DNA from: a virus
Lineage: Duplodnaviria; Heunggongvirae; Uroviricota; Caudoviricetes
Length of the DNA: 64,000 nt
Strand: one strand, 5' to 3'
Virus record (IMG/VR): IMGVR_UViG_637000265_000001
Shown: one piece after another, positions 18,962-22,916 of the stretch
Numbering within the stretch: position 1 is the stretch's first letter
Layout: every line of letters begins with the position of its first letter
Made by a program: the position numbers and the translations under genes
The notes under the pieces: model-generated
What the model was told of the DNA's origin: nothing
Database searches by the model: none
What the model saw: only the letters and a program-made list of their open reading frames with translations

Positions 18962-20692
18962 ATGGCTAATTACCGTGATTTGTTAGAGCAGGCTGGCGCA
19001 CGTTACGGTGTGCCAGAAGGGTTGATGACTGCACTGGGTGCCAAGGAGTCTTCTTACAACCCTGCCGCAGTAAGCTCCGCCGGGGCTGTAGGATTGACTC
19101 AGGTCATGCCTGGGACATGGCGTGATATGGGTTATACCGATGAGCAAATGCAAAACCCCGAATATCAGGCTGACGCTGGCGCGCGCTATCTGGCAAAGAT
19201 GTACCAGCAGTTTGGTAACTGGCGTGACGCTCTTCAGGCTTATCACGACGGTCCCGGCAACGTTATGAAGGCAAAGCGTGGTGAATATACGCCAGGACCT
19301 GAAGGCCGCGGTTACGTTGATGATCGCTTTGCTCAATGGGCGGGTGACCCGGTGACAGACTCAACAGTCGAACAGCGCGCCACCTCTGCAAAGGTACATC
19401 CTCAGCAAGACCCTAACAACCCGTTTGCACAACTGGAAGTACAGTCATCCGAACAAGTATCGGCATCAGGTGTGCAGTCAGACCCAAATAATCCATTTGC
19501 TCAGATTGAGCAGCAGGCAGCCAGTCAGCAGCCACCTCAACCCGTAAGTTCTGTCGCACCGAAACCTGTTCAGCAACAAACAGTTAATCAGGCCAATAAT
19601 GCACCAACACGGGAAGAACCATCATTGATGCAACAAGCTGGCGATTGGCTCACTGGTGGTCAAAGTGCAGGGCAAATTGCAGAACAGGCTGGTCGTGGTC
19701 TGGTAAACATACCATTTGACGTATTGCAGGGTGGCGCAAGTCTGATTAATGCAATCAGTCAGGGGCTTGGGGGGCCAAAAGTATTGGATGATGTTTATCG
19801 TCCAGTAGACAGACCGACAGACCCCTACGCGCAAGCTGGAGAGTCAATAGGCGGTTATCTTGTTCCTGGAGCAGGTGTAGCTGGAAACATGGTCATTGGT
19901 TCTCTCGCTGACGCGGCGAATCAACGGGGTGATTTTGCCGAAAATGCCGCTATTAATGCCGGACTTAGCATTGCTACGCATGGCCTGATAAATGGCGTTA
20001 CCCGTGGTGTTCGTGGTGCATCAAATATAATTAGTGGCAATAAAACATCTGCACAGAGAGCGACCACTGCGCCAACAGAAACATCACCATTCTCCGGTGA
20101 TGCCGCTGCAGCAACAAATCCTGCGGTTCATGCCGCAGAGGCAAGAGTAGCACAAGGTGTACCAATGACGCCTGCGACGAAGAACCCAGAGGAAGTCGTT
20201 CGCACAGTAGCAGCACAAAAAAGGCCAAATCTCGCTTCATCGCTTGATGAACTAGATATCAATCCTCAGGCTGAAGTTCTGGAGTCTGCTGAAAGGCTTA
20301 ATGTTGATTCATTACTCCCTTCACACTTTTCCGGGAACGAGCAATACAAGGCAGTTGAGCAAGCAATCAAGTCCCGTGCGGGTTCTGCTCTACAGGTGCA
20401 GGAAAATGAAGCAATCAGGCAGCTAGCACAGGGCGCGGGTGAGATAATTGATCGCGTTTCCGGTGCAAAAGATGCTCTTGGTATGAGCGACAAGTTTATT
20501 GATACGGTCAATGGAAGAATGTCTGCGCTGATGAAACGAAGCGACCAGCTTTATCGCAATGTTGAAAAGGCGATGCCTGCAGGTGCAAAAATTGATGCGC
20601 CATCAACAAGGTCAATGCTCAAACAGGTGGAAGAAGATCTTGGCGGGATGAAAAACCTTGACCCTATTGAAAAGAGAGTTGAGGTAGCCTGA
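18962..20692 (+). CDS. ejection protein (gp16 position) with N-terminal lytic transglycosylase-like domain; 3' end fused to IS600 end
   Basis: SLT-like motif [22 protein letters not shown]; last 4 codons derive from the IS inverted repeat starting at 20680. Confidence 0.6.
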
Positions 20693-20763
20693 GTTTAACG
20701 GACACTCCTTCCTGAAATAGAATGGCATCAGAAGGAGCTAATAATGAGCAGAAAAACCCAACG
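20680..20763 (+). mobile_element. IS600-like (IS3 family) 5' fragment, 84 bp, interrupted by IS629
   Basis: Identical to the left end of the IS copy at 63534, up to codon 7 of orfA. Confidence 0.7.
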
Positions 20764-20817
20764 TGAACCGCCCCGGGAATCCTGGAGACTAAACTTCCTG
20801 AGAAAGAGGTAAACAGG

Positions 20818-21144
20818 ATGACTAAAAATACTCGTTTTTCCCCCGAAGTCCGTCAACGGGCAGTCCGTATGGTTCTGGAAAGTCAGGGCGAATATGACTC
20901 ACAATGGGCGACAATTTGTTCCATTGCCCCAAAGATTGGCTGTACGCCGGAGACTCTGCGTGTCCGGGTTCGCCAGCATGAGCGGGATACCGGGGGCGGT
21001 GATGGAGGGCTCACCACCGCTGAACGTCAGCGTCTGAAAGAGCCGGAACGTGAAAATCGTGAACTGCGCCGCAGTAACGATATCCTTCGCCAGGCTTCCG
21101 CTTATTTTGCGAAGGCGGAGTTCGACCGCCTCTGGAAAAAATGA
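20818..21144 (+). CDS. IS629 OrfA
   Basis: 108 aa [30 protein letters not shown]... Confidence 0.85.
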
Positions 21145-22031
21145 TGCCACTGCTGGATAAGCTGCGTGAGCAGTACGGGGTCGGACCGCTATGCAGCGAA
21201 CTGCATATTGCCCCGTCAACGTATTACCACTGTCAGCAACAGCGACATCATCCGGATAAACGCAGTGCCCGTGCGCAGCGCGATGACTGGCTGAAGAAAG
21301 AGATACAGCGCGTATACGATGAAAATCACAAGGTATACGGTGTGCGTAAAGTCTGGCGTCAGTTGTTACGGGAAGGTATCAGAGTGGCCAGATGCACTGT
21401 GGCACGTCTCATGGCGGTTATGGGACTTGCCGGTGTTCTCCGGGGTAAAAAGGTCCGTACGACCATCAGCCGGAAAGCCGTTGCCGCAGGCGACCGCGTA
21501 AACCGTCAGTTCGTGGCAGAACGACCTGACCAGCTGTGGGTGGCTGATTTTACTTACGTCAGCACATGGCAGGGCTTCGTCTATGTGGCGTTCATCATTG
21601 ATGTGTTTGCCGGATACATCGTGGGGTGGCGGGTCTCATCGTCCATGGAAACGACATTCGTGCTGGATGCACTGGAGCAGGCGTTATGGGCCCGTCGACC
21701 GTCCGGCACGGTCCATCACAGTGATAAAGGTTCTCAGTATGTATCGCTGGCCTACACACAGCGGCTTAAGGAAGCCGGATTACTGGCATCAACAGGAAGT
21801 ACAGGCGACTCGTATGACAACGCGATGGCGGAGAGCATCAATGGTCTTTACAAAGCGAAGGTAATACACCGTAAGAGCTGGAAAAACCGTGCAGAAGTGG
21901 AACTGGCCACACTCACGTGGGTGGACTGGTATAACAATCGACGATTGCTGGAAAGGCTGGGCCATACTCCTCCGGCAGAAGCAGAAAAAGCTTATTATGC
22001 TTCCATCGGAAACGATGATCTGGCAGCCTGA
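21141..22031 (+). CDS. IS629 OrfB transposase
   Basis: 296 aa DDE transposase overlapping orfA. Confidence 0.85.
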
Positions 22032-22076
22032 GTTCACAGATAAAACACTCTCCAGGAAACCCGGGGCGGTTCAACG

Positions 22077-22514
22077 TTACATGGCGTAGCCGACAATTTC
22101 GCACGTATAAACATCTTTGATGCCAGCGAGGTACAACCATCCCTCCTGTGTGGCAACATACGTCAGGTCCGCCACCCAGACCTGATTTGGTGCTGTAGGA
22201 GCGAACGTCTGGTTCAGCAGATTTGGCGCAACTGGCAGATTGTGGTTCGGGTTCGTAGTCGCTCTGAACTTGCGTTTCTGCTTACAGCGTAGCCTCAGCT
22301 CCTTACGAAGACATGCCAGTCGGTCACGACCAACGATGATGCCATTCTCTGCCAGCTCCGTCTGGAGCCGCCGGGTTCCATATGTTTCGCGAGTGCGGAT
22401 ATGTGCCACCTTAATCTCCAGTTTTAGCCGCTCATCACTTTGTTTTCTGTCTGAGGGTTCATGCTGTACCCAGTTGTAATAACCGCTCCTGGATACACCA
22501 AATACCTGACACAT
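22077..22514 (-). pseudogene. IS600-like OrfB, 3'-truncated at IS629 junction
   Basis: 145 aa N-terminal part of a DDE transposase ending at the IS629 boundary. Confidence 0.7.
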
Positions 22515-22549
22515 CGCTTCAATGGGAAATTGTTGTCGCCATTGTTCGA

Positions 22550-22852
22550 TTAACGCGTATTTTTCAGCGACTCCTGTGCAAAATACGCTGTTGCTTTTTT
22601 TAATATATCGCGCTCAAGGCGAGCTTCATTTAACGCCTTACGCAGTTGCAGAATTTCAGATTCCAGTTCAGCCACCGTGCGGGAACCAGGAGTACCGAGC
22701 CCTTTTCTGGCGGCGGTAACCCATTGTCCTAAAGTGCCTTCAGGAAGGGATAATCGGGAAGCGCCTTCACTGATCGAAAGTTGATTTTCAAGAACCGTTC
22801 TGACAGCTTCGGCTTTGAACTCTTTAGAGTAACGTTGGGTTTTTCTGCTCAT
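22550..22852 (-). CDS. IS600-like OrfA
   Basis: 100 aa MSRKTQRYSKEFKAEAVRTVLENQ... Confidence 0.8.
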   Translation of the reverse strand: MSRKTQRYSKEFKAEAVRTVLENQLSISEGASRLSLPEGTLGQWVTAARKGLGTPGSRTVAELESEILQLRKALNEARLERDILKKATAYFAQESLKNTR

Positions 22853-22916
22853 TATTAGCTCCTTCTGATGCCATTCTATTTCAGGAAGGAGTGTCCGTTA
22901 AACTCAGGCTACCTCA

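Follow-up and report, generated by a model that had tools for sequence, protein, structure and literature searches.

IS600 and IS629 sequences at the seam between two prophage remnants of Shigella flexneri 5b

The SHI-O locus and related IS insertions

The closest described counterpart of the DNA analysed here is the SHI-O locus of S. flexneri 5b strain 8401. The SHI-O passages of Nie et al. (2006, PMC1550401) report an SfV remnant of ~15 kb near 300 kb together with gtrV/B/A, as well as IS-mediated inversions around that remnant in Sf8401, and they ascribe the inversion around SHI-O ("inversion 1") to IS629. The 64,000-nucleotide stretch of DNA that we analysed (the window) is the same DNA: it matches the 8401 chromosome CP000266.1 with 100% identity over 21.7 kb, and the whole of it is the thrW/SHI-O prophage graveyard of this strain. 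Those same passages contain no description of the base-level joint of IS600, IS629 and IS600 that is treated below or of the P22/Sf101-like fragment to the left of it, and they do not make the point that the head genes here are SfI/SfII/SfIV-like and not SfV-like.

Target duplications of 3-4 bp have been reported for IS629, 62% of whose copies in O157 lie in prophages (PMC3271280). The copy in the window shares with the IS629 prophage insertions of EHEC O157 and Shigella its 1310-bp length, 25-bp repeats, pseudoknot, 3-bp duplication and prophage location, but differs from them in that its target is another IS (IS600 nt 82-84). A further comparison is offered by the E. coli plasmid p93_0495-1 (NZ_CP074801.1), where a truncated IS600 in inverted orientation (nt 755-1) likewise borders directly on an IS629-like element and an IS600 left-end fragment lies beside a full inverted IS600; its breakpoints are different, however, the identity of its IS629 relative is no more than 94.8%, and phage genes are absent from its flanks. 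As this plasmid shows, debris of nested or truncated IS600 with IS629-like elements is common.

The seam in the window lies between a P22-like remnant and an SfV-like prophage remnant. It is ordinary IS wreckage, a head-to-head pair of broken IS600 copies one of which has IS629 inside it, and it is typical of IS-driven prophage decay in Shigella, in a genome that has already been published. The structure as a whole is best explained, with a probability that we put at about 0.8, by two IS600 insertions, a non-homologous joint between the two IS600 copies (A and B, below) and a simple insertion of IS629.

The phage flanks and the two IS600 copies

On the left, the window is collinear with Sf101 positions 9469-13248 (98.4% identity), and this collinearity ends exactly at 13248. 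The gene that is interrupted there is a P22/Sf101-type ejection protein gene, called "transglycosylase" in Sf101, where it is 2736 nt long and encodes 911 aa; its first 572 codons are kept at 18962-20679 (plus strand, 98.4% identical to Sf101). The truncated ORF extends over four codons of IS600 before it meets a stop at 20692, and its 576-aa product has Pfam matches to PF01464 (SLT) and PF26808 (P22_gp16). The genes that precede it match PF25688 (gp7) and PF16928, which is the synteny with gp7 and gp20 homologues expected of a P22-type gp16. The P22-like prophage is left without its tailspike and without the 3' third of the gp16-type gene. In the look-up of gp7 the matches were swamped by unrelated P22-like prophages, and the first left-end ORF had no entry in the record look-up.

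On the right, the flank begins exactly at SfI position 1856, inside terL (542-2275 in SfI). A full large terminase of the HK97/SfV type comprises an ATPase and a nuclease; here the last 139 of 577 codons alone survive, in frame and with the stop, at 22917-23336 (plus strand, SfI/SfII/SfIV-type, 97.5% identical to SfI), and they carry a remnant of the nuclease domain (PF20441). Downstream of it follow genes for the portal, the S78 protease and an HK97-type capsid. Missing from the SfV-type prophage are the small terminase gene, the first (5') 438 codons of terL and the early region. The prophage fragments are both defective, while the gtrV/B/A genes downstream remain anchored in the chromosome. 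How S. flexneri 5b came to have its gtrV genes for serotype conversion locked into the chromosome can be read from this structure at base resolution. The first-pass annotation of this DNA had placed the structure at 20680-22916, with the IS sequence exactly at the seam between two prophage modules and with a P22-like ejection gene and a terminase, both of them truncated and from prophages of different types, as its outer flanks. All of this holds, and the breakpoints are exact with respect to both Sf101 (13248) and SfI (1856).

The IS600 sequences were compared with a PGAP-annotated E. coli copy (90-3040; NZ_CP027459.1, "IS3-like element IS600 family transposase"), which is not the ISfinder type. 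Copy A occupies 20680-20763 (plus strand) and is nt 1-84 of IS600, with 100% identity to the reference over nt 1-85 (E = 2e-39); it comprises the IS600 left inverted repeat and leader and runs 6.7 codons into orfA. Copy B occupies 22080-22916 (minus strand) and is nt 837-1, with 99.3% identity over 837 nt (6 mismatches). Its left inverted repeat ends at 22916, its orfA (22550-22852, minus strand, 100 aa) is intact, and its orfB retains codons 1-145 (22077-22514) and closes with a TAA stop made by the joint; the genes called in it have Pfam matches to HTH_Tnp_1, HTH_21 and rve. An inverted partial IS600 with left end, orfA and the 5' part of orfB had been seen to the right of IS629 earlier, and it is copy B (nt 837-1 at 22080-22916). 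The earlier wording "IS600-like" was correct as to affinity but too loose, since the identities to IS600 are 100% (nt 1-85) and 99.3% (nt 1-837); by this comparison both elements are bona fide IS600. A complete IS600 is 1264 bp long, with an inverted repeat at each end, an undamaged orfAB and a duplication of 3 bp; what is present here is limited to nt 1-88 and nt 1-837. Copy A is without genes and copy B is without the OrfB DDE core and the right end, so both are dead, and the structure at 20680-22916 functions as no system.

Each of the two IS600 left inverted repeats abuts its own phage gene exactly where the collinearity with Sf101 (13248) or SfI (1856) ends, which argues for two separate integration events. 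Copy A probably inserted into the ejection gene (gp16-type) of a prophage resembling P22/Sf101 and copy B, independently, into terL of a serotype-converting prophage of the SfI/SfV type. A composite transposon bounded by the two IS600 left ends was considered and rejected: the outer flanks are AGT on the left and TAT on the right, with no matching duplication, and they come from unrelated phage genes, Sf101 gene 13 and SfI terL.

IS629 and the joint between the IS600 copies

IS629 is complete (1310 bp, 20764-22073, plus strand), as judged by its inverted repeats, ORFs and pseudoknot. Its 25-nt terminal inverted repeats (IRL 20764-20788, IRR 22049-22073) match at 23 of 25 positions; orfA (20818-21144, plus strand, 108 aa) and orfB (21141-22031, plus strand, 296 aa) overlap at GGAAAAAATG, and an ALIL pseudoknot for -1 frameshifting spans 21099-21215 (Rfam RF01497, 120 bits). 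The ORF products have Pfam matches to HTH_Tnp_1, HTH_21 and rve. Its size, inverted repeats, orfA/orfB overlap with frameshift signal and 3-bp duplication are all those of an IS629. For comparison we used copies in E. coli genomes, which PGAP labels only "IS3 family transposase"; the present element has 98.9% identity to one of these E. coli IS629 copies, from which its OrfA differs by W50R and L75P.

As had been noted from the sequence, IS629 is nested immediately after nt 84 of the IS600 left end and is bracketed by ACG repeats, the left one at 20761-20763 (IS600 nt 82-84) and the right one at 22074-22076. But what follows the right-hand ACG? The first-pass annotation had read it as not being the continuation of the left IS600. 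This is not so for the first 4 nt and correct thereafter: by comparison with the reference, TTAC at 22077-22080 (plus strand) is nt 85-88 of copy A, its C being shared with nt 837 of copy B, and inverted copy B follows. The reference around the copy A site reads ...CCCAACGTTACTCT, the window reads ACGTTAC|ATGGCGTAGCC and the reverse complement of the reference reads ...GCTCTCCCATGGCGTAGCC. A full IS600 continuing to the right of IS629 would read ACGTTACTCTAAAG..., and an IS600 variant that gave a right flank of pure copy B would read ...CGCCATGTAACGT... at nt 831-843. The chance of the 7-nt match is 4^-7 (~6e-5), or 2e-4 when the shared C is excluded. Because ACG is present on both sides and TTAC continues copy A, IS629 is a simple insertion into copy A. 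It entered at nt 82-84 by ordinary copy-out/paste-in, duplicating ACG, either before or after the joining of A to B.

The joint connects nt 88 of one IS600 to nt 837 of the other in opposite orientation and with a 1-nt overlap; as both positions are internal, it is a non-homologous (illegitimate) joint. In the absence of IS629 this joint would read CCCAACGTTACATGGCG, and IS629 inside an otherwise intact IS600 would read GGTTCAACGTTACTCTAAAGAG. A single joining event between nt 88 of A and nt 837 of B, at one shared base, would have eliminated the remaining parts of the two IS600 copies and placed the phage fragments next to each other, as a deletion if the copies were inverted or as one end of an inversion if they were direct. 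The predicted reciprocal joint would have nt 1264-89 of IS600 (as reverse complement) next to nt 838-1264 and would read GAACTCTTTAGA(G)GGAGAGCGCATGAC.

The earlier proposal that IS-mediated recombination fused the prophage fragments, whether through homologous exchange of one IS600 copy with another or through a reaction of the IS600 transposase, draws on the IS600 sequence on both sides of the seam, on the IS-mediated inversions that the SHI-O passages of Nie et al. (PMC1550401) document in the 8401 genome and on the neighbouring IS600 at 63534, which resembles a homologous hybrid in being of full length and without target duplication. A homologous exchange between two IS600 copies, however, regenerates a full 1264-bp IS600, and a joint made by the transposase would involve nt 1 or nt 1264. 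The seam has neither a full IS600 nor an IS terminus at the joint, but an inverted join of internal nt 88 to internal nt 837 with a 1-nt overlap, and we consider the proposal quite unlikely and do not uphold it. A hybrid IS produced by homologous IS x IS recombination was also rejected as a candidate for the structure, as the seam lacks a full-length IS600 and the flanks of IS629 match.

Could two IS629 copies, one in each IS600, have recombined to make the fusion, which would then be "inversion 1" of Nie et al.? These authors do attribute the SHI-O inversion to IS629 in the SHI-O passages of their paper (PMC1550401), and S. flexneri SFBU1023 indicates that this very IS629 copy can serve as an exchange point: it has the same left side (gene16'::IS600(1-84)::IS629), which is followed by psiF-phoA, an unrelated right flank, with no ACG. 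On its flanking sequence, the SFBU1023 element is an example of an exchanged IS629. A hybrid IS629 in the window should have unrelated flanks like those of SFBU1023, but here ACG is present on both flanks and the right flank agrees with the left IS600 for 4 more nt; moreover, canonical inverted copy B has GCTCTCCCATGG at this place and not ACGTTACATGG. The retained duplication and the 4 nt of original target indicate that the fusion was not made by exchange with another IS629, and we regard such an exchange as very unlikely. The retained target duplication is what separates a bystander IS (strain 8401) from an IS at a recombination endpoint (SFBU1023).

No more than 4 nt separate the joint from the IS629 duplication. 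This is predicted by neither order of the two events in the reading that we favour (IS629 insertion and A/B joint), and some causal link to IS629 is therefore possible. IS629 might have inserted first, and its transposase, through a nick at the right end and copy-out, might have broken the adjacent IS600, which was then joined by microhomology to the other IS600 copy. Between the joint and the tip of the IS629 right inverted repeat there are 7-8 nt, a proximity expected by chance in ~1% of cases, and in EHEC, deletions adjacent to IS629 that range from a few nt to >40 kb, as well as IEE microhomology end-joining, have been documented (PMC9943667). However, the IS is lost in the IEE events on record, while IS629 and its duplication are intact here, and strand transfer in the IS3 family targets 3 nt outside the end, not 7-8. 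The W50R and L75P changes in OrfA also weigh against this course of events, although a transposase could act in trans. We consider it unlikely. If true, an IS629-triggered joint with 1-nt microhomology, in which IS and duplication are kept, would be the footprint of a transposase-induced adjacent rearrangement that is not described for the IS3 family.

Occurrence in other genomes and neighbouring elements

All of the seam is multicopy IS sequence, and short-read assemblies break at its edges (short-read contigs do so at the IS600 ends), as would fit repeats that had been collapsed or mis-joined. The same junctions are present in Sanger-finished CP000266.1, in independently assembled CP026799.1, in further contigs of >1 Mb and in an IMG/VR contig of 43 kb, and CP026799.1 has private differences (7 SNPs as well as, inside IS629, a deletion of 4 bp); the 576-aa truncated product was found on contigs of >1 Mb from 6 blocks of the collection. 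The structure is not an artefact on this evidence, and we regard an assembly error as extremely unlikely.

Among species-representative genomes the right-hand junction was absent and the left-hand junction was found only in S. flexneri SFBU1023. No record among E. coli complete genomes had the whole structure or either IS629 junction as contiguous sequence; the stretch of IS629 plus IS600 has up to 99.4% identity to E. coli records, and the top matches there are two separate pieces that were combined by the search tool. In IMG/VR the copy A and copy B junctions were found on contigs that end inside IS629, and the scan of IMG/VR did not find the reciprocal joint. A metagenome scan gave 0 reciprocal joints, but it also gave 0 for the positive control IS600::'terL, despite a JGI contig that carries it. 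No precursor, that is, a full-length IS600 at either of the phage sites, was found. The junctions gene16'::IS600, IS600 nt 84::IS629, 88/837 and IS600::'terL can serve as lineage markers for typing and for ordering IS events in S. flexneri; beyond such bookkeeping the structure matters little.

The history of the locus can be written as two prophages and two inversions, as three tandem prophages and one deletion, or as a duplication and deletions, all of which fit the orientations. At 1286-4017 lies a lysis cassette on the (-) strand; it is no more than 76-83% like the SfI and Sf101 counterparts, and the SfV lysis genes gave no match to it. The seam stands in a locus that IS have scrambled repeatedly: IS911, IS2, IS1 and an IS4-family element are also in the window, together with a third IS600 at 63534, and related strains vary at these IS boundaries. 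The IS600 at 63534 is of full length and lies against a truncated int beside thrW-proA, without a target duplication; it looks like a hybrid from homologous IS x IS recombination. Like the seam, it marks a rearrangement endpoint, in its case between prophage and chromosomal DNA, but it is a full-length element without target duplication, whereas the seam consists of two partial IS600 copies joined at internal, non-equivalent positions.

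Anatomy of the nested insertion sequences

The window stretch 19800-24200 was inspected against a full IS600 copy from E. coli 90-3040, which placed three IS pieces and bore out the arrangement described in the first-pass annotation: IS600 nucleotides 1-84 (copy A, on the ejection-gene side; 20680-20763, 100% identity) are followed by a 1310 bp IS629 with 25-nt terminal inverted repeats (20764-22073) and then by IS600 nucleotides 837-1 in inverted orientation (copy B, on the terL side; 22080-22916, 99.3% identity, 6 mismatches). IS629 has its expected layout of orfA (108 aa) and orfB (296 aa), whose products carry HTH and rve domains, and its ALIL frameshift pseudoknot, scoring 120 bits, lies at 21099-21215. 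An E. coli IS629 copy matches it at 98.9% identity, and the entire IS629 plus IS600 stretch is up to 99.4% identical to E. coli records. The IS629 OrfA (20818-21144) differs from the E. coli copy by W50R and L75P, and the latter, to judge from its position in the heptad region, could weaken oligomerisation. The 3-bp duplication ACG is intact on either side of IS629, in line with the 3-4 bp known for this element (PMC3271280).

The joint between the two IS600 copies

IS600 nucleotides 78-95 read ...CCCAACG TTAC TCTAAAG in the E. coli 90-3040 copy, the right flank of IS629 reads ACG TTAC ATGGCGTAGCC, and the IS600 reverse complement near nucleotide 837 reads ...GCTCTCC C ATGGCGTAGCC. Copy A resumes past the right-hand ACG for nucleotides 85-88 and then meets nucleotide 837 of the opposite-facing copy B; the C at this 88/837 joint is attributable to either copy, an overlap of 1 nt. 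The chance probability of such a seven-base copy A match to the right of IS629 (six without the shared C) is 6 × 10^-5 to 2 × 10^-4. Because the ACG repeat is followed by copy A nucleotides 85-88 on the right side, IS629 is a plain insertion. The 88/837 joint falls inside both IS600 copies and overlaps by a single nucleotide, which marks it as non-homologous and places its formation away from any IS terminus; it also creates the TAA that closes the 145-codon OrfB remnant of copy B. The right flank of IS629 had been described as an inverted partial IS600, which it is, and as not continuing the left copy, which nucleotides 85-88 contradict.

The outer flanks are, as first annotated, a C-terminally truncated P22-like ejection gene and an N-terminally truncated terminase. 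The left flank shares 98.4% identity with phage Sf101 and is collinear with it up to exactly position 13248, within a 2736-nt "transglycosylase" gene (SLT and P22_gp16 domains) that lies after the gp7 and gp20 homologues and of which 572 of 911 codons are kept. The right flank, with 97.5% identity to SfI, begins exactly at SfI position 1856 in terL (542-2275), and the last 139 terL codons remain in frame, followed by genes for portal, S78 protease, HK97-type capsid, Mu-like tail and then gtrV/B/A. Since each IS600 left inverted repeat meets a phage target of its own with base precision, IS600 integrated here in two separate events. As read from the sequence, it is the 88/837 joint that fuses the two sides. 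Although ISs lie at this prophage seam, what closes it is an illegitimate joint and not a product of IS-mediated recombination. The original observation stands with one correction, and its interpretation was partly right. The "SfV remnant" (22917-41945) is a mosaic: its terL-to-capsid genes (22917-26870) are ~97% SfI/SfII/SfIV-like, mostly without an SfV match, and its tail and gtrV genes (26871-41945) are 96-98% SfV-like.

The structure in related genomes

Over 21.7 kb the window matches both the S. flexneri 5b 8401 chromosome (CP000266.1, ~235.5-299.5 kb) and a JGI contig at 100% identity. The junctions recur in CP026799.1, whose nested IS differs by 7 SNPs and a 4-bp deletion, and 6 blocks of the collection have the 576-aa truncated product on contigs >1 Mb, with the same neighbourhood in all. 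IS600 ends are stopping points of short-read contigs; misassembly, a worry raised at first reading, is excluded by these sequence records, which share the same junctions. The gene16'::IS600::IS629 side (gene16' being the truncated ejection gene) is common to more diverged IMG/VR contigs (97-99.5% identity), and one 43-kb IMG/VR contig carries the right side. CP026799.1 has 4 mismatches in ~19.5 kb of flanking phage DNA and denser changes in the 2.24-kb nested IS, suggesting that other IS copies served as donors for gene conversion or that constraint is relaxed.

The gene16'::IS600(1-84)::IS629 order recurs in S. flexneri SFBU1023 (CP182556.1), but to the right of that IS629 lies psiF-phoA-iraP-ddlA without ACG. 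SFBU1023 shows how an IS629 appears once it has served as the endpoint of an exchange or deletion. The 8401 element, with ACG on both sides, keeps its original target left and right, so its state is ancestral and IS629 recombination did not make the prophage fusion. The SFBU1023 flank has just 92% identity to E. coli and many broken ORFs, perhaps because the assembly is of low quality.

Rearrangement of the thrW locus and origin of the joint

The available text of Nie et al. (2006) assigns this region to SHI-O and reports a ~15-kb SfV remnant there, surrounded by IS-mediated inversions; the 88/837 joint is absent from that part of the description. A third IS600 begins at 63534 and extends past the window end (the window covers 63534-64000). 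In CP000266.1 it is full length without a 3-bp duplication (flanks AAA and GGG), and its right end adjoins an integrase gene fragment, the 3'-terminal 419 nt, after which come thrW, proA, proB and the sequence up to pepD. This copy resembles a hybrid IS produced by IS600-mediated inversion or deletion. The 419-nt fragment is 98.8% identical to window 41882-42300, inverted relative to it, and shares only 71% identity with the SfV integrase gene. A 46-bp attP core is complete at 41882-41927 in window 41882-42300, which also contains the 3' end of int (41942-43102), itself not SfV-like (~71% identity). The core lies between gtrA and int, the phage-type and not the prophage order, which implies tandem prophages. 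From the thrW-side IS600 and integrase fragment, 22917-63533, which lies between two IS600 left ends, has an inverted orientation with respect to thrW; within it are SfV-type late genes, gtrV, the attP-like site and, from a P22/Sf6-like prophage, the genes from int to lysis.

The sequence shows two separate IS600 insertions, one non-homologous joint linking A(88) to B(837), and one simple IS629 insertion. The joint probably reflects one of two events. For a deletion between inverted IS600 copies, a P22-like prophage would have to lie upstream of the SfV-type one; an inversion between direct copies, of which the joint would be one end, fits a two-prophage tandem and the IS600-mediated inversion implied by the hybrid at 63534. 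The reciprocal joint predicted from inversion had no match in the IMG/VR scan, and in metagenome scans neither it nor the positive control was matched. That resident IS629 caused the joint is possible but unsupported: the joint lies only 4 nt past its duplication, and IS629/IEE-associated adjacent deletions (PMC9943667) offer a possible analogue, but those events remove the IS, which is retained here, and strand transfer in the IS3 family targets a point 3 nt beyond the IS end.

Overall, the structure shows the usual decay of prophages driven by ISs, in an already published Shigella genome, and the locus, a graveyard of at least two prophages, has been rearranged repeatedly. IS911 (6771-8020) truncates a P22-type terL remnant (8006-9070; its Terminase_6N match begins at profile position 68), and related strains vary at exactly the IS boundaries of this locus: in CP026765.1 IS911 is inverted and window 2649-6770 missing, and in an IMG/VR contig IS911 adjoins window 12590. 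IS2 (1-1290) stands at the window start, and left of the window lie IS2, a T6SS island and dnaQ-rnhA-gloB. An IS1 copy (48799-49571) and an IS4-family element (448 aa; 52850-54196, in the cro/cII region of the P22/Sf6-like prophage) are also present. A lambdoid lysis cassette on the minus strand (1286-6770: holin, lysozyme, Rz, a 172-aa gene and upstream genes, one of 405 aa without a Pfam match and one DUF6971) faces the opposite way to both late-gene blocks.
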